From: an uncultured archaeon
GTDB taxonomy: Archaea > Asgardarchaeota > Thorarchaeia > Thorarchaeales > Thorarchaeaceae
Direction of reading: 5' to 3'
Length of the DNA: 33,157 nt
Assembly: GCA_964610875.1 (NCBI GenBank)
Contig: CAZSWP010000040.1
Location: 1-33,157 of the forward strand
Shown: in pieces, positions 3 through 27,891 of the stretch
Layout: each line of letters opens with the position of its first letter
How positions within the stretch are numbered: the first letter of the stretch is position 1
The notes under the pieces: generated by a model
Seen by the model: only the letters and a program-made list of their open reading frames with translations
Database searches by the model: none
What the model was told of the DNA's origin: nothing
Program-made: the position numbers and the translations under genes

Positions 3-3000
3 ATAACCTTCAACCTAACATGGACTCCAACACCATCAACTCCTGATCCGGACTTAGATATCTCATTAGACCTTGATATAGAGCTTAACCTTTTTGCTAG
101 AAGATATGATGTAGAAACAGTATATGAAATAAAATCCACTAGCTATGGAGAGATATTCTCAATTGAAAATGGGACAGATGCTTACTATAGCACATATTTC
201 TATGCAGATATTCCTGAAGGATATCCAAATCGATACTTCTACAATGTAACGATACCTACGAATAGGGATGTCTATTTCTTAGCAAAACCACTGGATCCCA
301 GTACAAACCTTGAAACTGGCTGGACTGGAGGTGACCCCGGCGATGGCTATGTGAATGTATCAACATATGATATAGCTACAATTGCAGGCAGATATGGATA
401 TTGGAGAATGCTTAGCAATTCACCAAATATGATTACAAGTATGGAATTATATGATCCAGATACAACAAATTGGGTAAGGGATCTAGACCTACGTGCTGAT
501 CAGACCACTAGAATACAAGCTGATCTTGGGACTGAATTCGAAAACTCAATAGTAAACTTCACTATATACACTCCAGATGGTGATAAGTGGGATAGTGTTC
601 TTGCAACCACGGATTCCTCTGGCTATGCAACTACATCTGAGTTCACGTTTGCGGGATCAAATGCATCAGCTGGGTCATGGATGGTTCAAGCTTTCACAAA
701 TGATACGGGTACTAATGGTCAATGGCGATCGACTGGTTTCTTCAAACGTGCATTCACTGTTACTCATGCTGCTGAGTTATTATTGACATATCCAGAAGAG
801 GATAGCCCTTGGATTGTCAATGTGACATATGGTGACCTTTTGCTAATTGTGGTAAAAGCAAATGATACTGATAGTAATGTGCCAATATCTAACGGCATTC
901 TTGAGTATGACTTGGGTGTTGAAACAGGAACATTTGATGCAGGCAGCAATGGTGAATATACTACTGTATTAAATCAAACTAGTTTGTCGAGTAGTGGTCA
1001 GTTCCAGATGGACCTTGAATGGTCTAAATCTAGCTTCGACAATGCTTTGGCTACTCTGTATATCAATGTCAACTATCCTGCTGAATTGACCTCCCCAGAG
1101 TATCCAGGAATTGGTGGTGCGATTGAGCAGAATCAGAGCTTCACCGTTGATTTTCGTAATGCTAATGGAACTGGAATTACAGGAGCCACAATAACCACTA
1201 ACTGGACTGATGGGTATTCAGTACAAGAACTGTCTGATGGCTTGTATGAAATTGAACTAGATATAGATTCAGCTGGATTAGATGAATACCCAATCAATGT
1301 AACTGCTAAAGCGTCATTTGTTGAAACTCAGCATATGCTAATGTACGTAGAAGTTAGAGAAGTATACAATATCATCTCGTACTCTGCTAACCAGTTGTCA
1401 ATCCCACTCGGTGAGAATGCGTCATTTACAATTACATGGACTGATAGAGAAACAGGGGATCCGATAAATGGAAGTGCTAGTTACATCACGTGCAATTGGA
1501 CATCATTCCATTCCACTGGTGAAAAGAATTATACTATTGAAGAAACAGCAACACCCGGAAAATACAAAGTAACAATCCATACTGAGGATGATGATCCTCT
1601 TACTGCAGAAGATGAATTTCTGACTGTCAGATTCAATGTTTCGAGATATGCCTATCAGAATCATACGTTTGACATAGGAGTAAAGATTCGGAGTCATAAT
1701 ACATACTTTGCCTTGGATGAACCGATAGACCAGACTTCATTTGAAAGGAATATCACCGTTCTAGTTTATTATAGCGATACTGACCTACTTGAAGGAATAG
1801 TAAACACTACTGGAGATATCGGGTTGACAATTACCACTCCAGGTGTTTCAAATCTCATCTTCTATGTTACTGATTCTACACTTGGTGATGGACACTATAA
1901 CATAACAATTCCAGCAAATCAATGGGGTGAGATAGGATGGAAGAATCTCACGATCCTCATTGAATGGACTGGTACTTATACTAAATACTTTAGTCAGACT
2001 ATTGAAACTGAAGTAAGAATCTTAGGAACAGATACAGACCTCTACCTTGGTGAAGCTCCAACAGCTACATACTATCTGAATAACTTCACCTTCTCCATTA
2101 TTTACTACGATACTGTGAATGATACTGCTATTAGTAATGCATCATTGTTCAATGTACTCTATATGATAACTCCACTTACAGGAGGTCATCCTGTCGCTCA
2201 GAGTGATTTTCAAGTCATTGAATCCTTGACAAGTCCGGGTACCTATGAATTCAGTCTGAACACATCAAGATTTGATGCGATTGGTACATTCAAATTCCAG
2301 ATTGATTTCATGTGGAGTAGTGGTGTGACTCCATTATATGAGAATAGGACTCTATCAATCACTCTAGTAGTACTTCAGAGGCCCACCTATATTGACTATA
2401 CGCCTGCACCATCAACACCTTATGGTGAACTTGTGGACTTCTCATTTACCTACGTAGATTCCTTAGCAACAGAACGAATTCCTAATTCGAGCTCACTTCA
2501 AATCAGTTTGAGCGATATCGGAGTTAGTTATTCAATATCCTATAATGAAATACTAAATGAGTTCACAATTACCATTGATACAGGGACACTCTCTATTATC
2601 GGAGATAATACACTACATCTGAACGTTACATGGTCAGGAACACCATTCTACAAATCAATTACAAACACCGAATTCACGATAACTGTAACGCTCAGAAGTA
2701 CACAATTGACACATCTATCCTTTGCTCCTGGTCAGTGGGGCAATATTGTCGATATTGAATTCATTTTCACGGACCTTGTATCCGGGAGTTCATCAGGTAT
2801 GACGGGTGTTCTCACTCTGAATGTGAGTAGTATTTACTATACTGTCACACCACTTGGTAACGGTCATTATCTGGTCGAGCTGAATACCTCTGCTTATCCG
2901 TTACCAAGTATTTACACAATCAATGCCACTATCGTATACACTGGTAGCAACAATGCTGCTGATGCTATCGAGTTGTTCTCATTCTCCGTTCTGGAACGTG

Positions 3001-6000
3001 TTACACAATTTGGATATGAGAATCCAGATCCAACTTCTTTCTTAGAGAATGTAACATTCTACATATCCTATACAGATGATTCTACAAGCAAAGGAATAAG
3101 TGATGCTATCTTTGATATAGAGTGCGCTAACTCGACCGAAACTCTTGTACTAGATGATAATTTCTGGATTGAGTACATCTCGGATGGTCAGTATTTAATT
3201 CTTGTAAGCTCCACTTCTCTAGGAAATATTGGCATCTATATTTTGCAGATAGAGGTCTCTTATGCTGGTCAGCCTTTCTATGCATCTGCTACAAGGAATA
3301 TCACAACAAGAATAACACAAAGAACCACCCAGATTCTTATTACACAGACTCCTGGTGAAGTCGCATTTAATGAGAACCTCACTATTGCCTTCAAATATGA
3401 GGACTTTCTTACTGGACAATTGATTAAGATCAACAAATCGCATATAGTTCTGACACATGGTATTCTACACACATTAATTCCATCAATTAACTACACGTTA
3501 ACAAATTACACAACATATTACACCATATCCTTCAATTCATCATTACTAGATGACTCCGCCTTAGTTTCTGGACACTCGATCTATATCGTTATTGATCGTA
3601 GTGTTGGGGCTCCCTACTATGCACCTCGCAATACAGCAACGACTGCTACAACTACTGAGCGTCCAACTCAGATTCAATTCCCATTAATAGAAGATACTGC
3701 TTATGGCACAAATATCACGCTCAACATAAAGTTCATCGATTATCTCTCCGGAGATGGAATTGATGGTGCAATAATTGAGATTGCATGCAGCAATCTCACC
3801 ACACTTGTGAATTACACAGTCCCATTAGGTGATGGTTCATATCGTATTCTTATCCCTAGCGAACAGTTTGGAGGTCTCGGGATTGTTGAATTCGATGTGA
3901 CCGTTTCTAAGGATGGGCTACCATTCTATCAGACACGTGTGAGTCTTGGTGTACCCGCAACAATAAGACAAGTCCGTACATCCATCATTGTTTCAGCGCC
4001 ACCTGCTGGTACCATTCCTGTTGGAGATGCATTTGTTCTAAATGTGACTGTGACTGATGTTGATAATGACTTGCTACTATCAGGATTTGCAATTACTTGC
4101 AACTGGACAAATGGCTATAGTGTTGACGAAGTGGATAATGGGTTCTACCAGATTACACTCAATACAACAGGAGTAATTGCCCAAGCGTATCCGATACTTG
4201 TGGAGGCAAACAAGCAATTCTATGCAACAGCATCTGCTGAGTTATCTGTACAACCAGGTTCTCGGGTCTATGAAATTCAACTTGAGAAGAGCACATACTA
4301 CGCAGATTGGGGTGAGATGATCCAGATACGATTCATTGTGGTTGATAGCTATTATGGTAGCTACATTCCATTCATGAATGCATCACTGCTATTGAATGGC
4401 ACACTCACGTATTTCACAGACAATGAAGATGGTACCTACACCTACAATCTAGATACATCTATCAACGATTATGGAATCTTCACTCCAACAATCACCGTAT
4501 CACGGGAGTTCTATCAGACAAGACAGAGAACCTTCAATCTTGTCATTTACAAAGCAACTGGACAAATTATTCCCGATGAAACAACAGTCGAAATCGTACT
4601 AGAATCATCAGAAGAAGTGACTGTATATCTCAATGATACAGTGTCAAATACACCCGTTTCTGATGCATCTGTCACCATGGAGTGGAACAACACAATTTAC
4701 GATTTGACTTATACAGGCACCCCCGGCTATTACTCGGCAACTCTCGATGTGGCTGGATTCAGTATTGCATCATATGATCTAATCTTCAGAGTTGTGGCAA
4801 CAAATCATGATTTCCTCGACCGAACCGTTACTGTCAATATCATCCCCGTGCCTACTGAATTCGACCCTGCATCACTCCCTTCGTCCTTCTCCTTGTATTT
4901 TGGACAAAACATTGAGATATCATTCAACTATACTGACTCCTTCCATGGCGATGTAATTATTGATAATGCTAATGTCAGTTACACTATTGGAGGTCTCTCG
5001 GGCGTTTTAGAACAGGATGTCGATGGTGTATACAAAGCTTCTATTGACACATCTACACTAAATGTCGGATCATTGAGTCTAAAAATCACCGCCAAAAAAC
5101 AAGGATATTCGACTATCACCAAGACAATTCCTGTGACAATTCTCTCATTGCCAGTTGAGATTCTTGTACATTCATTCACAGTTGATGGCTATGTTGGTGA
5201 TACTGTCAGTTTCATGATATACTTCAATGATACTTTCAACAATGAACCGATAATGGATGCAATTGTTACAGCATCTTGGGAAGGAGAAGATGGCATTACT
5301 AGTGATCATGAAAATGGATCTTACTCTCTTGCTCTTAATTTGACATTGACAACACCCAGACTCTATGAAGTTTCTATTCAAGTGAGTGCTGTCAACTACC
5401 AGATTGCGGTCTTCACTGTGAATGTTATCATAAAGGCAACACCCGCTAAGATAATAGCTCCCTCTACTATATCGTTCCCAGTGAATGATACTGGCGTTGT
5501 TGTCGTGACACTCATAAACAGTCTGACCGAAGAACCAATCACCGATGTGAATGGTATTGCTTACTGGTCTGGTCTTGGAGAATCCTTCCTTATCTTAATG
5601 GAGAACGGTAGTTACAGGATGCCTATAATTGAGAATCTTCAGATTGCATCATATGAGGTTGAGATTGTCTTCTCCACTTCTCTCTATGATGTCGAATCAT
5701 TTACATTGACTGTGATTGTTCGCAATGTTCACACTGATTTATTATATGATGATTCAAGAATTAATACATCTCCTGGGTCTCCGCTTGTGTTGAGAATCAC
5801 GTATATTGACGTGGATCATGATAATATCGGAATTCCGGGTGTCATCCCCCTAGTTACTTATCCTGAGCAGAATATAACATACTATCCAAATCTGCTTGAG
5901 GATTACGGAAACGGTACGTATGACTTATACTTCCAGATAAATGCTGCATTCACTATGTCGATAACAGTACAATTCTCTTACGGACAATACGAAACACAAG

Positions 6001-6680
6001 AAGCAGAGTTTACGATACTTTCTGATGTAACAGCTGCACAGCAGGCTGCACAGATTGCTACAACAACAGGAGGAATTGGATTACTCGTTGTTGCCATGCT
6101 CTTATTCTTCTACATCCGAGTCTGGTCTGTACCACGACAGATTCGTGCAATGAATAGAATGATACGGCTTCTTGCGAAGGGTCGTATTCCTAAACCTGCT
6201 GAGGCTCCGTCAAGAGGTAAAATGGCATTACAAATACTGAGTGAAGAGCTGAAGGGAAGTGGAGTCGCAAAGACAATTGATGATGTTGCTCCAGAACCTA
6301 TCATTGCTCATGTTCCTGAAGTCAACGATTTGCTTGAGCGACTTGCTGAAATAACTGGTCTTGGAGAAACCGAAATTACTGCCTTCAGAGCTGACCTCGC
6401 AAGAATGAAACCAAGTGAGCGTCCCGGATTCTTGAAAGAAGTAATTGTTCAAGAAGAAGCTCGTAGAGCAGAAGAACTAGTAGAACCAGAATTAGTAGCT
6501 GAAAAAGAACCAGTTACAAAACGTCTTGAGGATCTTCCTGAAGAAACTGAAGAACTACGTCAGAAACTTTTGAGTAAAGGTCTTGCAAAGGAAGAGATTG
6601 AAGTGATCTTGGAAGAAGCAAAGAACCTCTCGAAAGCTGATTTGGAGGCACTATTATCAAGTCTTGGAATTGATCTATAG
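3..6680 (+). CDS. Giant single-pass cell-surface protein with many tandem Ig-like repeats, 5'-truncated (>2200 aa in window)
   Basis: The frame is open from base 3 to TAG 6680, so the GTG at 351 is internal. It has roughly 100-aa Thr/Tyr-rich beta repeats with a recurring 'GxGxYxIxLxT'-like motif and many N-x-S/T sequons. A TM helix (GGIGLLVVAMLLFFYIRVW, ~6070-6126) is followed by a charged helical tail of about 185 aa. Confidence 0.9.
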   Translation: MTFNLTWTPTPSTPDPDLDISLDLDIELNLFARRYDVETVYEIKSTSYGEIFSIENGTDAYYSTYFYADIPEGYPNRYFYNVTIPTNRDVYFLAKPLDPSTNLETGWTGGDPGDGYVNVSTYDIATIAGRYGYWRMLSNSPNMITSMELYDPDTTNWVRDLDLRADQTTRIQADLGTEFENSIVNFTIYTPDGDKWDSVLATTDSSGYATTSEFTFAGSNASAGSWMVQAFTNDTGTNGQWRSTGFFKRAFTVTHAAELLLTYPEEDSPWIVNVTYGDLLLIVVKANDTDSNVPISNGILEYDLGVETGTFDAGSNGEYTTVLNQTSLSSSGQFQMDLEWSKSSFDNALATLYINVNYPAELTSPEYPGIGGAIEQNQSFTVDFRNANGTGITGATITTNWTDGYSVQELSDGLYEIELDIDSAGLDEYPINVTAKASFVETQHMLMYVEVREVYNIISYSANQLSIPLGENASFTITWTDRETGDPINGSASYITCNWTSFHSTGEKNYTIEETATPGKYKVTIHTEDDDPLTAEDEFLTVRFNVSRYAYQNHTFDIGVKIRSHNTYFALDEPIDQTSFERNITVLVYYSDTDLLEGIVNTTGDIGLTITTPGVSNLIFYVTDSTLGDGHYNITIPANQWGEIGWKNLTILIEWTGTYTKYFSQTIETEVRILGTDTDLYLGEAPTATYYLNNFTFSIIYYDTVNDTAISNASLFNVLYMITPLTGGHPVAQSDFQVIESLTSPGTYEFSLNTSRFDAIGTFKFQIDFMWSSGVTPLYENRTLSITLVVLQRPTYIDYTPAPSTPYGELVDFSFTYVDSLATERIPNSSSLQISLSDIGVSYSISYNEILNEFTITIDTGTLSIIGDNTLHLNVTWSGTPFYKSITNTEFTITVTLRSTQLTHLSFAPGQWGNIVDIEFIFTDLVSGSSSGMTGVLTLNVSSIYYTVTPLGNGHYLVELNTSAYPLPSIYTINATIVYTGSNNAADAIELFSFSVLERVTQFGYENPDPTSFLENVTFYISYTDDSTSKGISDAIFDIECANSTETLVLDDNFWIEYISDGQYLILVSSTSLGNIGIYILQIEVSYAGQPFYASATRNITTRITQRTTQILITQTPGEVAFNENLTIAFKYEDFLTGQLIKINKSHIVLTHGILHTLIPSINYTLTNYTTYYTISFNSSLLDDSALVSGHSIYIVIDRSVGAPYYAPRNTATTATTTERPTQIQFPLIEDTAYGTNITLNIKFIDYLSGDGIDGAIIEIACSNLTTLVNYTVPLGDGSYRILIPSEQFGGLGIVEFDVTVSKDGLPFYQTRVSLGVPATIRQVRTSIIVSAPPAGTIPVGDAFVLNVTVTDVDNDLLLSGFAITCNWTNGYSVDEVDNGFYQITLNTTGVIAQAYPILVEANKQFYATASAELSVQPGSRVYEIQLEKSTYYADWGEMIQIRFIVVDSYYGSYIPFMNASLLLNGTLTYFTDNEDGTYTYNLDTSINDYGIFTPTITVSREFYQTRQRTFNLVIYKATGQIIPDETTVEIVLESSEEVTVYLNDTVSNTPVSDASVTMEWNNTIYDLTYTGTPGYYSATLDVAGFSIASYDLIFRVVATNHDFLDRTVTVNIIPVPTEFDPASLPSSFSLYFGQNIEISFNYTDSFHGDVIIDNANVSYTIGGLSGVLEQDVDGVYKASIDTSTLNVGSLSLKITAKKQGYSTITKTIPVTILSLPVEILVHSFTVDGYVGDTVSFMIYFNDTFNNEPIMDAIVTASWEGEDGITSDHENGSYSLALNLTLTTPRLYEVSIQVSAVNYQIAVFTVNVIIKATPAKIIAPSTISFPVNDTGVVVVTLINSLTEEPITDVNGIAYWSGLGESFLILMENGSYRMPIIENLQIASYEVEIVFSTSLYDVESFTLTVIVRNVHTDLLYDDSRINTSPGSPLVLRITYIDVDHDNIGIPGVIPLVTYPEQNITYYPNLLEDYGNGTYDLYFQINAAFTMSITVQFSYGQYETQEAEFTILSDVTAAQQAAQIATTTGGIGLLVVAMLLFFYIRVWSVPRQIRAMNRMIRLLAKGRIPKPAEAPSRGKMALQILSEELKGSGVAKTIDDVAPEPIIAHVPEVNDLLERLAEITGLGETEITAFRADLARMKPSERPGFLKEVIVQEEARRAEELVEPELVAEKEPVTKRLEDLPEETEELRQKLLSKGLAKEEIEVILEEAKNLSKADLEALLSSLGIDL

Positions 6681-21310: not shown

Positions 21311-22423
21311 ATGAGTATGAATTTGTCTGAACTAGATATGCAAATACTGCATATGTTAGAGATTGAACCAACTATTTCAGTTCGGAAACTTGCTGAAAAA
21401 GTAGAAGCGAGTTGGATTACTATCAATCGACATATTGAGAATCTTGAATCATCGGGGGTTCTTTCAAATCCTATTGCTGTCTTTAATCCAAGAAATCTTG
21501 GTCTAGAAAGACATGTTGTTTTTTTCCAAGTTAGAGATGAAACTCAAATCCAAATACTAGAAGCCATGTGTGATATTCATCCTTATACACATTATCGGAC
21601 TAGAATTTATGGTCCTTTTGCGGGTGTGTTTGCACAGTTTGATATTCCACCAGGAGGTCACTCAAATCTTATCAGACTCATAAAATCTCTTAAAGATCAA
21701 GATTACTGTATAGACTTCAATGAACTGGCAAGCATTGGAAATCGATTCTCAACGCATACAGACCTTAGTTTATTTGATGTGAGAACTCTAACATGGAACT
21801 ATGATTGGGATAGATGGGTAAAGACCTTAGAACAGTCTTCTACTAAAGTGCCAAGGATTCCACGGACATCTCGTACTCCATCTTTGAAAACAGTAGACCT
21901 GGAAATTCTTAGAGAGCTTACCGCCAATGCAAAAGTATCACAAAATAAGTTACAAGAAAAATATGGCGTTTCACAAAGCACAGCTAGTCGTAAGATGATC
22001 AATATAAATGAGTTATTTATCGAATCTATTAGACCACAGATTAATAGGTCGATATTCGATGTGACATCAACTAAGCTTTTCTATTGTGAAAAAGCCTCGG
22101 ATGAGAGCAGAGGGAAAATTTTCAATGCCATGCAAAGCGATGATGCTCCTCCTTTTCCAATGTCTTTAGATTTTTTGGAATATGGTGCTCTTGTCATCTG
22201 GGGTCGGATGCCACCTTCTCACGAACATAAATTGTACTATACATTATGGAAATATCTTCACGACCTCAAAGTATTCACAATGGATACTGTACGCGGTCAT
22301 AGTAGACTCTATTGGTTCTATCCTGAGAACTATGATACAAAAGCGAAGGAATGGAAAGAAGATCAGGAATGGATGATTGATGCTCCACTAAAGGCACTTC
22401 AAAAACATGTCAACGGATCTTAG
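21311..22423 (+). CDS. Tandem (duplicated) Lrp/AsnC-like winged-helix transcriptional regulator
   Basis: Two HTH units, LSELDMQILHMLE..ISVRKLAEKVEASWITINRHIENLESSGVL and VDLEILREL..VSQNKLQEKYGVSQSTASRKM, each followed by an alpha/beta (RAM-like) region. Confidence 0.8.
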   Translation: MSMNLSELDMQILHMLEIEPTISVRKLAEKVEASWITINRHIENLESSGVLSNPIAVFNPRNLGLERHVVFFQVRDETQIQILEAMCDIHPYTHYRTRIYGPFAGVFAQFDIPPGGHSNLIRLIKSLKDQDYCIDFNELASIGNRFSTHTDLSLFDVRTLTWNYDWDRWVKTLEQSSTKVPRIPRTSRTPSLKTVDLEILRELTANAKVSQNKLQEKYGVSQSTASRKMININELFIESIRPQINRSIFDVTSTKLFYCEKASDESRGKIFNAMQSDDAPPFPMSLDFLEYGALVIWGRMPPSHEHKLYYTLWKYLHDLKVFTMDTVRGHSRLYWFYPENYDTKAKEWKEDQEWMIDAPLKALQKHVNGS

Positions 22424-22564: not shown

Positions 22565-25500
22565 GTGCATCATGTGGGTCGATTGAAGGAGATTCTGAAA
22601 AAAGCAGGAAAAGGACTTGTTGTTACTGCGGCAAGCGTCATAGCTGGTGCAACATTGGGTCCTCTTGCTGCAGGTGCTGTTGGCTCATTCTTGTCAAAGG
22701 CAATGGGTGACATTGGAGTCAAGGTCAGTCAAGAAATAATCGATGAAGCCATAGAGGGTAAGATAATGGATGCTCCTCACAAATTGATGGAGCTCGGTCG
22801 CCCACAGGATATCGAAGAAGTTTCTGGAGATATTGCTGCAAAGACGGGATTACCTCAAGAGGAGATAAAGGCGGCACTACAGTACAGTCTTCGAGAACTT
22901 CAGAATTCGCTAGGCGACCTCACAATGGAGTTGCGTGGAAACACGATGCTTCTTGGAGAGGTATTCAAGTTAGCAAATGAATCGGATGCTAAGATTGATG
23001 TTGTTTTGGCTCAATCCCAAGAGACCCAAGATGCAATTGGTGAAGTCCTCAGACGTCTTGATGCAATGGAACGAGGATTAGACATCTCCTATCGAAAGTT
23101 CATCGGCAGTTACTCTGACCCGAAGAAACTGACAGTTGATAGACTTCGGGTGATAAGTAAACTTCAACGTCAGAGGACAATCGTGGCATCTGGCTTTGGT
23201 GTGCGATACGATTCAAATCTCTATGTTCCCCGTCAAGAAGAGGAATCTGTATTTAACAGGTTCATGGGCGACACTGGGATGTCAGATAGGAATATCTTCC
23301 TGGTGCTTGGAAATGCCGGTCTAGGAAAAACATGGTTCATGGCAAAGATGTCTGATTTGAGTCTCGAGATTGGTTCTCCAACCTTCTTTGTACCGCTAAG
23401 TCATGGTATCAAAGCATTGACCTCTGTGTTCCAAGTTGAAACGATTCCGGCATTAGTTGATCTGATTGACCCGCTACTTGATCAAGCTGGAGAACATGCT
23501 TTCATATTTCTCGATGGACTTGATGAGATGGACCCACGAAACATCCGGCATGTTCTAGGTTCTCTAGCTTCTGCTAGAAGTAACTCTGTATCATTCGTCT
23601 TATCATGTCGAGCTGCAGACTGGGCTACTAATCGCTCCATTGTTCAGGGTGCAAATGATCTGAAGTATTACATTTACGAGAACAAGGATGCAGAAGCAAA
23701 CGCACGAGCATTGCGAATCAATACCGCGGTATCTGTACTAATGTCGGAGTTTACTGATTCTGAGCTCCGTGCTGCAATGAAGAGGTATGGTCTTCCAGAG
23801 GAAGTTCCTTTTGATTTACTGCCATTACTTCATCGACCGTACATACTTCGACTTTCAACTGAATGGTATAATCAAGTAGGGTCATTGCCTTCTCCTTCCT
23901 CTCCGGAGTTTCTCGATTTGTTTGCAGGAGGACCAGAATATGCTGACTCAGTCTTCAGACGTTTGGGGATTCTTACGGAACGTGACTCACTATATGCTAC
24001 TGTAGAAAAGCTAATCGAAGCACAGCGTGATTCCCTTCCATTAGGACAATTACCTCTTGATCCTGAGTCTACTACATTCAATACTCTTGTTTCATCAGGT
24101 ATATTACAAATCACTCTTGGTAGAATAGGAACTACAATCTCATTGACACCAGAGTTCACTGTTCCATTGTTCTCCCTAACAATACTTAGACATCAGACTG
24201 ACCCTCCCAAGCTAAAAAAGTTACTCGATGTTGTAAAGGGTTACATGCCAGAACAAGCACCAGTTATTCAGAGGATTGTTGAGGAAATTGTTACACCTTC
24301 TGGCACAAGAATTGAACGTGTTGAACCAGTGATTCCTGAACCTGTAGTTGATGTACCTCATACCCCTACTCCAACCAGAACTGATCCTCCAATAAAGAAG
24401 GGCCTCTTACAGCCTGGAGATAAAGGTGCAACACTGCTTTCAGGTAGAGGTGCTAGTGTGGCTGTTCCTCCTAAAGAGGAACCGGAGCATGTCAGAGAGA
24501 AATCAGGGAAATATCCAGATGATGTAAAACATCTGATCTTTCTATTCAATGATAGAGAGATTCAAGTAAAACGAGCTGCTATGATGGCGCTAGGCATGGC
24601 TGCTTCACGTTTATCTGAATCCGATGCTAGAGTTGAACTTATAGAAGGTTTTCTAGAAGATGGTGATACTGATGTTCGTGTTGGAGCGACTCTTGGTATG
24701 TCAATGGTTGCTGCTACTCTGAAAAATGCAGGTGAAAGAATAGACCTCCTGAAGCCCTTGATTGAGGACTGGGAGTGGTCAGTAAGACGTACAGCTGCTT
24801 TCGGTCTTACCCTCATGGCAACCAAATTGAGTGATGAAGCAAAGAGAGATGAAATCATTAAACCTCTTCTTGAGGCTAGAGATGGACAAGTTAGGAGTGG
24901 CGCAGCTGAGGGTCTTGGTTTTGGTGCAATGTCATATCTAACACCAATGGATGCTCATCCTGTTATCCAACCATTATTGAAGGACAATTTCGAGGGTGTG
25001 AGAAAAGCTGCAGCTTTAGGCTTGGGTCTCTTGACTTCCACTCAAGCTGATTGTGATGCAACGGTTGAGCTTTTGACACCTATTACAAAACTCAAAACCG
25101 GGAAAGAACGGATAGGTGCCATAATGGGTCTTTGTCTTATTGGTAGTCGTCTTCCTGATTGTTCTGGAATTGTCAGGACTGTCACTCCCCTTCTTGAAGA
25201 CATGGATTATGAAGTAAGGAGTGCTTCGGCAATAGGACTGGGTCTTGCAGCCAGTGGTTTACCAGATCCATCGAGTATGTCAGATTTATTGAATCCACTA
25301 CTTTCAGATGATGAACCTGAAGTACAATACAGTGCTGCTTTGGGTCTTGGCCTCATAGCCTCAAAATTACCGAATCCCTCTATCTTCCTGAAGTCGTTAA
25401 TTGAGCACGATATTGAGCATGTTAGAAGTGGAGGTGCGATTGCCTTAGGAATTGTAGGAACACGATTTTCTGACCCCTCAGATATGATAGATCTCTTGAA

Positions 25501-25801
25501 ACCATTGGCGGAGGATACTGAAAGATCGGTCAGAAAAGGTGCTGTCATTGGCTTGTCTCTTGCTGCTACTAAGCTCAGGGATAAAGAAAAGCGGATTGAA
25601 CTGATAACACCATTTGCCAGTGATGAGGATGATGAGATTCGAAAGGCATCTGCTCTGGGACTCGGTATCATTAATACAGAACCCGAACTCGGAATTGGTA
25701 CAGTTCTTGGTGAAGTCTTCTGGGGTACAGCTCCATTGAATCATGATGAATGTATTGCCACCGGTATAGCTGCTAGTCTTTTACTTAGGTATGGACAATA
25801 A
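22565..25801 (+). CDS. STAND/NACHT-like P-loop NTPase with C-terminal 11 x ~36-aa PC/HEAT-like repeats
   Basis: Walker A GNAGLGKT (23309-23332), Walker B FIFLDGLDE (~23501-23527), sensor-1 VLSCR, RPYILRL motif, Pro-rich linker, and repeats with consensus PLLxDxxxxVRxxAAxGLGL. The start may be GTG 22574 (SD AGGTG). Confidence 0.85.
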   Translation: MHHVGRLKEILKKAGKGLVVTAASVIAGATLGPLAAGAVGSFLSKAMGDIGVKVSQEIIDEAIEGKIMDAPHKLMELGRPQDIEEVSGDIAAKTGLPQEEIKAALQYSLRELQNSLGDLTMELRGNTMLLGEVFKLANESDAKIDVVLAQSQETQDAIGEVLRRLDAMERGLDISYRKFIGSYSDPKKLTVDRLRVISKLQRQRTIVASGFGVRYDSNLYVPRQEEESVFNRFMGDTGMSDRNIFLVLGNAGLGKTWFMAKMSDLSLEIGSPTFFVPLSHGIKALTSVFQVETIPALVDLIDPLLDQAGEHAFIFLDGLDEMDPRNIRHVLGSLASARSNSVSFVLSCRAADWATNRSIVQGANDLKYYIYENKDAEANARALRINTAVSVLMSEFTDSELRAAMKRYGLPEEVPFDLLPLLHRPYILRLSTEWYNQVGSLPSPSSPEFLDLFAGGPEYADSVFRRLGILTERDSLYATVEKLIEAQRDSLPLGQLPLDPESTTFNTLVSSGILQITLGRIGTTISLTPEFTVPLFSLTILRHQTDPPKLKKLLDVVKGYMPEQAPVIQRIVEEIVTPSGTRIERVEPVIPEPVVDVPHTPTPTRTDPPIKKGLLQPGDKGATLLSGRGASVAVPPKEEPEHVREKSGKYPDDVKHLIFLFNDREIQVKRAAMMALGMAASRLSESDARVELIEGFLEDGDTDVRVGATLGMSMVAATLKNAGERIDLLKPLIEDWEWSVRRTAAFGLTLMATKLSDEAKRDEIIKPLLEARDGQVRSGAAEGLGFGAMSYLTPMDAHPVIQPLLKDNFEGVRKAAALGLGLLTSTQADCDATVELLTPITKLKTGKERIGAIMGLCLIGSRLPDCSGIVRTVTPLLEDMDYEVRSASAIGLGLAASGLPDPSSMSDLLNPLLSDDEPEVQYSAALGLGLIASKLPNPSIFLKSLIEHDIEHVRSGGAIALGIVGTRFSDPSDMIDLLKPLAEDTERSVRKGAVIGLSLAATKLRDKEKRIELITPFASDEDDEIRKASALGLGIINTEPELGIGTVLGEVFWGTAPLNHDECIATGIAASLLLRYGQ
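24530..25680 (+). repeat. Intragenic array of 11 helical repeats (~108 nt / 36 aa each)
   Basis: Units begin FLFND, GFLED, PLIED, PLLEA, PLLKD, PITKL, PLLED, PLLSD, SLIEH, PLAED, PFASD; one unit is 33 aa. Confidence 0.85.
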
Positions 25802-25986: not shown

Positions 25987-27891
25987 GTGTCAATCATGAA
26001 AGTATTTCGAAGAATTGTTCTTCCATCACTACTTCTGCTATTATCATTTCAACTTCTAATATCATGCACAACTTCAACTCCTCATTTTGATTCTAAAGCA
26101 TCTACCCCTAACAACTTATCCACTGTTGATTTCCCTTATCCCATAGAGGAGCAGATAGGTGATACTGTTTTTCAAGATGATTTTTCTTCTACGCCACTCG
26201 GATATAATCGTGATATCTGGGAAATCAAATCCTTTGGTGAGCAGACTATTTCTTGGGAAGACAACACTGTCCTAGGGTTAAGTGTTGGGTCCTTTACCCA
26301 TTCTATTTTTTCAAGTTCCACAAAATTTTCCGTTGAAGCAGTAATGCAAGTTTCATTCTCCTTCACTTTTGGAGATTGTTACTTTGGAATTGGATGGGCG
26401 GAGAGGGCTGACACATTAGCAAATGAATATGTAGTTGACTTGAGAAGATCAGAAAACGGCGTCTTCATCGATTATTGGGATGGTAGTCTTTTTCTTACAA
26501 CAATAAAAGATGGAGAACGTGCTGTAGTCAAATCTCGAGAAATAGACCTTAGAAATATGCATACATTCACACTATCTTGGTCTGAATCAATGGTTAGATT
26601 GGAGATTGATGGATTCCAGTCTTTATACATCACGGATTACATTCCTGTTTATGATATGTTTTGTCACTTCACACTTTCTGGAAATCACTATTTATCTGGT
26701 TTCGATACGTTGAGATTAGATTTTATCAAAATTCATAGTCTCGAAGAACCTGAAATGGAGGAACCTGAAGTCCGTCTCTTATGGCCCACCAATAACTCAC
26801 ATCTGTATGAAACTGATCTTATCAATCTTCATCAATTTGGCTCTTCGCAACCTTTGAACTACAGTATTGATGAACAAACATGGCATATGTCGCATAGCCC
26901 GTGGGATATTTCTTGTTCAAATATATCTGGGATGGTAGTTCTTTTTGTCAAGACATTGAATGAACCAGATAATCCAGAACGGTTCATTTTCAACCGGATT
27001 GAGCCTGAGTCCTTTAACATAAGATCAGTCGATTCAAATCTAGCTCAGATTGATGGTGTCAGTAGTCAAAAAGAAATCAATGATTTTGGCAAATCAACTC
27101 TCAATTTCCGTGATGAAGGTGGCTGGAATTCGAGTGGAACTATGGTAGCAGGTTATTCTGGAGATAAACTATACCTATGTTTGGAATATGAAATTAATTG
27201 TGGTTATTATACCCACATTATTCTGTTATTGGATTGTAATTCTGATTCGTTATGGCATCATGGTTCTGAGGTGGACGCAGATGACGTAGCTATCTCTGTT
27301 GCTGCTCCAACCGCTTCAGCAGGTTATTCTAAAGTCATGACATCTCAAGGCTATGAAATTCCAAGCGGGACAATAAAAGGATTGGAAACCGCTTCTGGTT
27401 ATCAATCTGGAGTGCTTTGTACTGAATTCCTTATTCCTCTATCTCTGATGGGTAAAAACAACTCTGACTCAGTTTCCTTTGGTTTGCAAATAGTTGAAGG
27501 AGGAATTGTCCATTCATTCCCTGCATCATTTCAAGAAGATAGTCAAACTCTGACTAGAATCCATCCCAATCAATCAGTACCAATCCTTTTCTCTCTCTAT
27601 AGTATATTCCTGCTAATTTTTGTCAGTTTCATCGGAGTAGCTATTTTCTACTTATTTCAGAGAAATAGATTATTACTATTATCTCGTGGAATAGAGTCAG
27701 ATGTTATTGATCGTTTCGAAACACTTCTTTCTTCATATGATATGATTCCTGTTGAAAAAATCCTACAGATGGTTGACTTGGAAGAAGAGAAATTGGAATC
27801 AGTGATTTCAATTCTAAATAAAAGAAATCAGGCGACTCGAATATTCATAAGGGACCGAGTAATTCATAGGACAATTGTGGATGAGGAATAG
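25987..27891 (+). CDS. Single-pass membrane protein: ConA/LamG-like + Ig-like + CBM9/DOMON-like ectodomain, cytoplasmic winged-helix (PCI-like); paralog 1
   Basis: Signal peptide; 'FQDDF...HTFTLSWSESMVRLEIDG' (ConA-like); 'AQIDG...EFLIPLSLMG' (CBM9-like); TM ~27580-27657; tail LLSSYDMIPVEKILQMVDLEEEKLESVISIL. Confidence 0.75.
   Translation: MSIMKVFRRIVLPSLLLLLSFQLLISCTTSTPHFDSKASTPNNLSTVDFPYPIEEQIGDTVFQDDFSSTPLGYNRDIWEIKSFGEQTISWEDNTVLGLSVGSFTHSIFSSSTKFSVEAVMQVSFSFTFGDCYFGIGWAERADTLANEYVVDLRRSENGVFIDYWDGSLFLTTIKDGERAVVKSREIDLRNMHTFTLSWSESMVRLEIDGFQSLYITDYIPVYDMFCHFTLSGNHYLSGFDTLRLDFIKIHSLEEPEMEEPEVRLLWPTNNSHLYETDLINLHQFGSSQPLNYSIDEQTWHMSHSPWDISCSNISGMVVLFVKTLNEPDNPERFIFNRIEPESFNIRSVDSNLAQIDGVSSQKEINDFGKSTLNFRDEGGWNSSGTMVAGYSGDKLYLCLEYEINCGYYTHIILLLDCNSDSLWHHGSEVDADDVAISVAAPTASAGYSKVMTSQGYEIPSGTIKGLETASGYQSGVLCTEFLIPLSLMGKNNSDSVSFGLQIVEGGIVHSFPASFQEDSQTLTRIHPNQSVPILFSLYSIFLLIFVSFIGVAIFYLFQRNRLLLLSRGIESDVIDRFETLLSSYDMIPVEKILQMVDLEEEKLESVISILNKRNQATRIFIRDRVIHRTIVDEE

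Follow-up and report, generated by a model that had tools for sequence, protein, structure and literature searches.

We examined a 33,157-nucleotide stretch of DNA (referred to as the window here) from an uncultured archaeon of the Thorarchaeaceae (Asgardarchaeota; contig CAZSWP010000040.1 of assembly GCA_964610875.1), in which one gene, at 22565-25801 on the plus strand, encodes what we read as an NLR-like Asgard STAND NTPase with a tethered PC-type toroid, probably homologous to the PC domains of the eukaryotic proteins Rpn1, Rpn2 and Apc1. We assign this reading a probability of about 0.62. Of the elements on which it builds, the repeats, the intact Walker A and Walker B motifs, the linker and the order of the domains are features of the sequence; the ring with its central plug and the fold of the NOD come from predicted models. 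A sequence-only reading of the window had drawn attention to the region that starts at 24530 (residue 656) and makes up the last 40% of the open reading frame (ORF), proposing that its repeats form a closed PC toroid instead of an open HEAT solenoid and that the domain is a prokaryotic relative of the Rpn1/Rpn2/Apc1 domain. Judged by our predicted model, the C-terminal domain very probably has a closed PC-type fold.

The C-terminal repeats are predicted to form a closed ring around two axial helices

The gene and the elements of its repeat domain, all on the plus strand, are as follows.

22565-25801, plus strand: whole gene, read as a STAND-type NTPase with a predicted C-terminal PC-like toroid (ORF list and translation, 1078 amino acids)
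24518-25687, plus strand: 11 helix-turn-helix repeats of the PC/HEAT_2 type, residues 652-1041 (repeat parsing; AlphaFold2 model; structural, hidden Markov model and hhalign matches)
25688-25720, plus strand: predicted axial (plug) helix 1, residues 1042-1052 (model helix H393-403)
25742-25792, plus strand: predicted axial (plug) helix 2, residues 1060-1076 (model helix H411-427)

With boundaries taken from the helix limits of the AlphaFold2 (AF2) model, the repeats start at residues 652, 686, 722, 758, 794, 831, 867, 902, 938, 972 and 1007, giving a period of 34-37 amino acids and a mean pairwise identity of 31%. Their consensus, LL.PL.ED....VR..AA.GLGL.A..L.D, contains the VRxxAAxGLGL pattern that had been noted at the outset, and the original count of 11 such repeats is borne out by the 11 parsed hairpins and the matching consensus. 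The repeats lie far above chance in Pfam (HEAT_2, E value of 9e-34; HEAT, 6e-23). No tandem repeats were found at the DNA level in the repeat region, and the repeats are therefore old. The two hydrophobic segments that had been described after the last repeat are also present, and both are helical in the AF2 model, where LGIGTVLGEVFW corresponds to the helix at residues 1042-1052 and CIATGIAASLLL lies inside the helix at residues 1060-1076. Both terminal segments are conserved across 14 orthologues (mean majority fraction, about 0.6). Across the orthologue alignment, conservation is higher in the inner helices and the plug (0.54-0.69) than in the exposed outer helices (0.38-0.54).

AF2 was run on the alignment of these 14 orthologues (alignment A2; model ma1779ca09d87). 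The resulting model of the repeat domain has a mean predicted local distance difference test score (pLDDT) of 95.2 and a predicted TM-score (pTM) of 0.93, with the five models spanning pLDDT values of 93.9-95.2, and consists of 24 helices, of which 22 pair into 11 hairpins and two are terminal. Ring closure was judged by superposition of the predicted model on known structures. In a Foldseek search of the PDB, chains of Rpn2 matched with TMq values of 0.67-0.75 and root mean square deviations (rmsd) of 4.6-8 Å, while the alphaRep, designed ARM, PP2A-A, importin and Integrator solenoids reached 0.31-0.45 with rmsd values of 12-23 Å. When the structures on Foldseek's list were realigned with VIA-align, human Rpn2 gave a Z-score of 33.7 at an rmsd of 3.7 Å over 397 amino acids, with residues 1-429 of the model placed on residues 347-785; yeast Rpn2 (PDB 4ADY) scored 32.1 and Rpn1/PSMD2 25-27.

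A structure search independent of Foldseek, covering 48,161 PDB representatives, placed the same three families at ranks 1-4 and 8 (Rpn2, Z of 29.7; Rpn1, 25.2; human Apc1, 20.6 and 20.4; yeast Apc1, 18.1), and among these representatives only Rpn2, Rpn1 and Apc1 aligned with the whole model at an rmsd of 4.4 Å or less. The best open solenoid scored a Z of 19.4 but at an rmsd of 16.9 Å, and open HEAT and ARM solenoids overall lay 5-23 Å from the model. For alphaRep, YibA, CpcE/F and PP2A-A, the deviation was 5-17 Å and the alignments stopped at about residue 390. Among the high-scoring matches, residue 429 of the model, in plug helix 2, was reached only by Rpn2, Rpn1 and Apc1, so that alignments taking in both terminal helices (1-429) are confined to PC domains. 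The alignment with human Apc1 covers its residues 1034-1616, in agreement with the published PC domain at 1013-1616 (PMC5717348).

PC repeats are defined as helix-turn-helix repeats of 30-40 amino acids with small residues (Gly/Ala) in the inner helices (PMC7344625). The domain studied here has small-residue repeats of 34-37 amino acids, 11 in number, and in the predicted model these close into a double ring, followed by two axial helices; the model is not the superhelix without central helices that characterizes an open solenoid. Structure prediction and search, the check proposed along with the sequence-only reading, thus put Rpn1, Rpn2 and Apc1 on top with full-length alignments, with open solenoids fitting poorly. 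The model is neither open nor best matched by PBS-lyase HEAT proteins, and it has axial helices. Its superposition on Rpn2 over the full length, at a Z of 33.7, supports a closed PC toroid over an open HEAT solenoid as the predicted fold.

The repeat domain is probably related to the PC domain by descent

At the sequence level, Rpn2 was the best natural match when all PDB sequences were searched with a hidden Markov model (HMM) of the family (human Rpn2, E value of 3e-23 for one continuous stretch and 7e-40 when overlapping registers are counted; yeast Rpn2, 1e-25). Rpn1 was found at 3e-14, the best natural non-PC proteins were YibA (8e-13) and PP2A-A (3e-10), and the consensus-designed alphaRep proteins (6e-26) were alone in nearing Rpn2; Apc1 was not in the best 60 of the 120 PDB matches. 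An hhalign comparison with an alignment of six eukaryotic Rpn2 sequences gave a probability of 99.3% (E value of 2.8e-20) over columns 128-421. This alignment is in register with the structural superposition and extends beyond repeat 11 to plug helix 1 and the W-x3-P-L-x-H motif that comes after it. In this part, W, P-L, H and C are common to the family and one Rpn2. In the reverse direction, using an HMM of the Rpn2 PC domain, the window protein obtained the best single-domain score of any non-Rpn2 protein (68.8 bits). The Pfam model PC_rep (PF01851) was matched at an E value of 0.01 or lower by 5 of the 14 orthologues, at best with 8.5e-13. Homology at the profile level is therefore found with a bona fide PC domain (hhalign, 99.3%), without being exclusive to it. 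The repeat domain alone gave no match at an E value of 1e-10 or lower in a search for homologous proteins and three matches with a profile, and a single-domain search of genome contigs returned no relatives. The proposed kinship with Rpn1, Rpn2 and Apc1 stands in the form of a probable domain homologue, not of an orthologue, and we consider a common origin with the eukaryotic PC domain probable.

The closest structural counterpart is Rpn2/PSMD1 (4ADY, and chain U or N in numerous 26S cryo-electron microscopy entries), with which the predicted domain has in common 11 hairpins of about 35 amino acids whose inner helices are built of small residues, the closure into a double ring and a pair of axial helices C terminal to repeat 11 (Z of 32-34; 3.7 Å over about 400 amino acids). 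Unlike the window protein, Rpn2 has an N-terminal rod, a C-terminal Rpn13-binding domain and an additional insertion that separates repeat 11 from the plug, whereas the predicted ring of the window protein, only about 20% identical to Rpn2, sits behind a STAND NTPase on a disordered linker and shows no link to the proteasome. Ring and plug are likewise shared with Rpn1/PSMD2 (7UJD, 7UIH; Z of 25-27, rmsd of 4.0 Å) and Apc1 (4UI9, 5A31, 8A3T; Z of 18-21, rmsd of 4.0-4.4 Å), but both are only 12-14% identical to the window ring and differ in their long inserts and flanking domains. Prokaryotic HEAT_2 and PBS-lyase HEAT-like proteins (PF13646, PF03130; alphaRep, YibA, CpcE/F) have the signature D..VR..AA.ALG in common with the family, but the solved examples are open solenoids that lack axial helices and any match to model residues 393-429. 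Repeats of the HEAT_2/PBS type are about 31 amino acids long, compared with 34-37 in the window protein.

The repeat domain is tethered to a STAND-type NTPase

The remaining parts of the gene, again on the plus strand, are the following.

22565-23179, plus strand: N-terminal helical domain, residues about 1-205 (invariant columns in 15 sequences; all helical in the AF2 model, H2-202)
22613-22708, plus strand: almost invariant Gly/Ala-rich hydrophobic hairpin within the N-terminal domain, residues about 17-48
23207-24289, plus strand: NOD, composed of P-loop NTPase, helical and winged-helix domains, residues about 215-575 (motifs; AF2 model)
23309-23332, plus strand: Walker A motif GNAGLGKT, residues 249-256 (invariant in 15 sequences)
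23501-23527, plus strand: Walker B motif FIFLDGLDE, residues 313-321 (invariant in 15 sequences)
24290-24517, plus strand: disordered P/S/T/A-rich linker, residues 576-651 (composition; orthologue alignment)
24395-24412, plus strand: conserved linker motif KKGLxQ(xF), residues 611-616 (orthologue alignment)

The listed GTG start codon is probably 9 nucleotides too early (22565-22576). A GTG at 22574, giving a product of 1075 amino acids, is the likelier start, because the database copy (P0002) has 1075 amino acids and the orthologues begin with M-x-LK at the matching position. ORFs antisense to the repeat region had no match in Pfam, and the repeat region itself had none in Rfam.

The Walker A and Walker B motifs conform to the GxxxxGK[ST] and hhhhD[GD]xDE patterns of STAND NTPases. 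All Pfam matches stay below threshold (nSTAND_NTPase5, 21.2 versus 34 bits; NACHT, 14.3 versus 26.7 bits; NPHP3_N), those to the NCBIfam NACHT antiphage models EruA and HyoA are far under their cutoffs, and a sequence search of the PDB with the N-terminal half yielded nothing meaningful. The AF2 model of residues 4-580 (pLDDT of 77) consists of a helical N-terminal domain, then the P-loop NOD and then a helical/winged-helix region. Using Foldseek and VIA-align, this model matched ORC/Cdc6, NOD2, Avs4, ZAR1/NRC4/Sr35, CED-4, Apaf-1 and NLRC4 with Z-scores of 12-14, the alignments covering residues 183-577 with Avs4 and 209-545 with ORC2. Given that the scores of STAND-type proteins tie with those of ORC/Cdc6 and NSF-type AAA+ proteins, the NOD is best described as STAND/AAA+-like, without finer subfamily placement.

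The N-terminal domain, which also holds a basic helix, had no match in Pfam or among PDB sequences; a weak feature-based lead points to the N-terminal helical domains NNH2/NNH3 of bacterial NACHT proteins (score of 0.77). We regard it as a putative output or membrane-active module. The linker varies between 76 and 149 amino acids in the orthologues, with a P/S/T/A/G fraction of 0.40-0.69, and cannot be aligned except for KKGLxQ; the conserved KKGLxQ(xF) could serve as a short linear motif for docking or cleavage.

Taken together, a helical N-terminal domain, a NOD, a disordered tether and C-terminal repeats follow one another in the tripartite effector-NOD-repeat order. This order and the Walker motifs are shared with STAND and NLR-like proteins (Avs4, bacterial NACHT proteins, NOD2/NLRC4, plant CNL resistosomes, Apaf-1/CED-4), as are the fold of the NOD and winged helix at the above Z-scores and a patchy, accessory distribution. 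The window protein differs from them in that its predicted repeat module is a closed ring on a tether of 76-149 amino acids and not a solenoid packed on the NOD; in addition, all Pfam and NCBIfam STAND models remain under their cutoffs, and no PADLOC system was matched.

For this protein, we infer a sensor role, oligomerization and a membrane-active output. The C-terminal 430 residues would form 11 hairpins in two concentric helical rings around two axial helices, and this ring, held on a long disordered linker, would most likely act as a rigid platform for protein binding or sensing. Occupancy of the ring could then gate the nucleotide-dependent switch and the oligomerization of the NOD, with the N-terminal helical domain and its Gly/Ala hairpin as the output, possibly directed at the membrane as in CC-NLRs (coiled-coil NLRs) and bacterial NACHT proteins. 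The long tether would also suit a platform for recruitment like that of Rpn1/Rpn2. We see an even chance that the toroid serves as the sensor or platform of an NLR-like switch.

Other Asgard proteins have related repeats, and bacterial models are ring-like

PC_rep scores above its cutoff in 8 of 301 Asgard genomes. Beyond the orthologues, these matches include three other proteins.

L007:985-2385, plus strand: P0173 (identical to P0091), stand-alone protein of 466 amino acids (PC_rep, 105 bits)
L008:1-2004, minus strand: P0174, 668 amino acids, N-terminal PC repeats followed by an unassigned tail of 250 amino acids, ORF open at one end (PC_rep, 70 bits)
L006:1-1755, plus strand: partial ORF (PC_rep, 96 bits versus HEAT_2, 53 bits)

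P0173 aligns with the window family at an hhalign probability of 99.4% over columns 7-391 and ends in a Trp-rich hydrophobic segment. As far as can be told from sequence, P0173 and P0174 resemble the family in having repeats of 35-36 amino acids and a hydrophobic, Trp-rich C-terminal plug. They are unlike the window protein in that they pass PC_rep strongly, have no NTPase and belong to other Asgard families. In the ESM Atlas, bacterial HEAT_PBS proteins of 380-470 amino acids (Nitrospirota, Nitrospinota) match residues 1-390 of our model with TM-scores of 0.63-0.66 and rmsd values of 3.8-4.1 Å, covering the ring without the plug.

The gene behaves as an accessory gene with variable neighborhoods

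We found about 15 full-length orthologues with 47-57% identity, all in Asgard metagenome-assembled genomes, the named ones being Thorarchaeota or Lokiarchaeota. Conservation is much stronger over the N-terminal 575 residues (mean column identity of 73%) than over the repeat domain (54%). With a profile of the N-terminal half, the gene was detected in 23 of 301 Asgard genomes, including 13 of the 76 from the window's own family. It is patchy by genus (5/5 genomes in one, 0/25 in another), with one to three matches per genome, and the repeat domain occurs as a single copy in the window's genome. With its patchy distribution and variable neighborhoods, the gene behaves as an accessory gene. The neighboring genes in the window are as follows.

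21311-22423, plus strand: upstream neighbor, tandem winged-helix regulator of 370 amino acids with two HTH modules (HTH_24, E value of 1e-16)
25987-27891 and 27912-29804, plus strand: two paralogous membrane-type proteins of about 630 amino acids, downstream (sequence features)

The product of the upstream neighbor also matches the HTH parts of the CRISPR-associated CasR/Csa3 models in PADLOC. Each downstream paralogue appears to carry a signal peptide and has a large ectodomain, a hydrophobic transmembrane-like segment close to the C terminus and a short tail. The tail encoded at 27912-29804 matches Pfam PCI above its cutoff (34.5 bits), the match being a 49-amino-acid winged helix that overlaps an HTH_AsnC match.

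Giant secreted-type proteins (2163-2173 amino acids, with TSP3_bac repeats) are encoded just downstream of two orthologues (L002:13811-19243 and L005:11890-18411), and at the start of the window, 16 kb upstream of the STAND gene, lies an ORF of >2200 amino acids (3-6680). A recurring association between giant secreted-type proteins and the STAND gene is possible.

Alternative explanations

Several results weigh against our reading, and some of them would suit an ordinary prokaryotic HEAT_2/PBS array whose 36-amino-acid period happens to close, with no special kinship to Rpn1, Rpn2 or Apc1. In Pfam, the repeats score 116 bits with HEAT_2 (cutoff, 27.7) versus 13.7 bits with PC_rep (cutoff, 21) and 17.1 bits with HEAT_PBS, so that the HMM comparison suggested with the sequence-only reading did not turn out in favor of PC. 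The HEAT_2 score does not discriminate, however, because eukaryotic Rpn2 (P0020) carries the same Pfam matches as the window protein. In an exhaustive search with the family HMM (1.8 billion representatives, 24,654 matches), many giant HEAT_2 proteins outrank the five Rpn2 sequences within the top 150, and other HEAT_2 proteins interleave with the family in the reverse search with the Rpn2 HMM; on these grounds we rejected Rpn2 as the uniquely closest relative. The matches outside the family that rank high lack PC_rep and are HEAT_2 repeats fused to various partners (among them KAP NTPase and PNP_UDP), and many prokaryotic HEAT_2 proteins score per residue as well as Rpn2. The language-model neighbors of the domain are generic prokaryotic HEAT_2/HEAT_PBS clusters. 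An HMM restricted to the plug (the last 39 family columns) found nothing significant among Rpn2 and 150 HEAT_2 matches, and the W-x3-PL-x-H likeness therefore stays suggestive. Considering also the ring-like bacterial HEAT_PBS models of the Atlas, closed or near-closed HEAT rings may be spread more widely than Asgard archaea and eukaryotes, perhaps throughout bacteria. What speaks against convergence is that the number of repeats and the number and position of the axial helices are the same as in PC domains, with a full-length fit at 3.7 Å, that the hhalign alignment stays in register from end to end and into the plug, with W, P-L and H residues in common, and that other Asgard proteins score strongly on PC_rep, one of them aligning with the family at 99.4%. 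On balance, we consider convergence unlikely. An artifact of prediction, in which AlphaFold reproduces a memorized Rpn2 shape for what is really an open HEAT solenoid, has in its favor that the ring is known from prediction, with Rpn2 structures in the AF2 training set, that the alignment held 14 sequences only and that the repeats are HEAT-like at the Pfam level. Yet all five models reach a high pLDDT, with a pTM of 0.93; an open solenoid would leave the two conserved hydrophobic C-terminal helices without a function; conservation peaks in the inner helices with their small residues; and related repeat proteins also come out ring-like with another predictor (ESMFold, in the Atlas). In our view, an artifact is very unlikely.

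The remaining alternatives concern the function of the ring. The fold and sequence similarity to Rpn2 and Rpn1, together with the binding of Rpt coiled coils and of ubiquitin and ubiquitin-like domains by the eukaryotic PC ring (PMC7344625, PMC4192671), could mean that the toroid docks on PAN/proteasome or binds ubiquitin-like proteins, tying the STAND switch to proteolysis. RPN2_N and RPN2_C domains were not found in Pfam, though, and no proteasome gene was present among the neighbors examined in the window or next to orthologues. Pfam ubiquitin and E2 models had no match in the 95%-complete genome, which is weak evidence since control genomes cannot show these families. The patchy distribution is also unlike that of a core proteasome subunit, and we give this counterpart very little credence. 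In the absence of RPN2_N and RPN2_C domains and of a proteasome or ubiquitin context, and with a STAND NTPase as its N-terminal half, the window protein is not an orthologue of Rpn1 or Rpn2 in the 19S base. The adjacency and common direction of the STAND gene and the two downstream genes, along with the PCI match in the second of these, would fit a three-gene signaling module with the two proteins, taken as single-pass membrane proteins, in which the PC ring pairs with PCI winged helices of their cytoplasmic tails. Such a module is most improbable: PCI-tailed membrane genes are absent beside three orthologue loci (L002/L003, L004 and L005), where the flanks differ at each, and the PCI match is the short winged helix shared with HTH_AsnC. 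A conserved PC-PCI module is thus not supported. As for an NLR-like switch with a tethered toroid, the reading that we prefer, three further points count against it: PADLOC found no defense system at the locus and generic HEAT models only, our searches found no ligand or partner of the toroid protein, and canonical NLR sensors are packed against the NOD, in contrast to a ring on a long flexible linker.

Implications for the origin of the PC fold

According to a review from 2017, Rpn1 and Rpn2 are the sole known PC repeat domains besides Apc1 (PMC5717348), and solved structures with a closed ring of 11 repeats and two central helices are limited to Rpn1/Rpn2 and Apc1. We found no description of a prokaryotic PC toroid in the literature searched, and a 2026 preprint on structural clusters shared by Asgard archaea and eukaryotes makes no mention of Rpn1, Rpn2, Apc1 or toroids. 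On the predicted model, what is new here would be that a fold already known occurs in a prokaryote and within an architecture not described before; the protein is not an Rpn1/Rpn2 orthologue. The value of the finding is tempered by the predicted nature of the structure and the inferred function, and by bacterial HEAT_PBS proteins that may form similar rings. A more far-reaching scenario, which we put forward tentatively and hold to be rather unlikely, is that the PC toroid predates eukaryotes: Asgard archaea would have possessed closed rings of 11 repeats with two axial helices, some fused to a STAND NTPase and others standing alone, and one of these would be the source of the Rpn1/Rpn2 scaffolds of the 19S base and of Apc1. 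On the model, the PC fold would also work in another context, held on a tether as the repeat module of an NLR-like ATPase. Asgard archaea are the archaea closest to eukaryotes, and the PC-type ring that is predicted for them with high confidence offers a candidate, open to testing, for the origin of the largest scaffolds of the proteasome base and the cyclosome.

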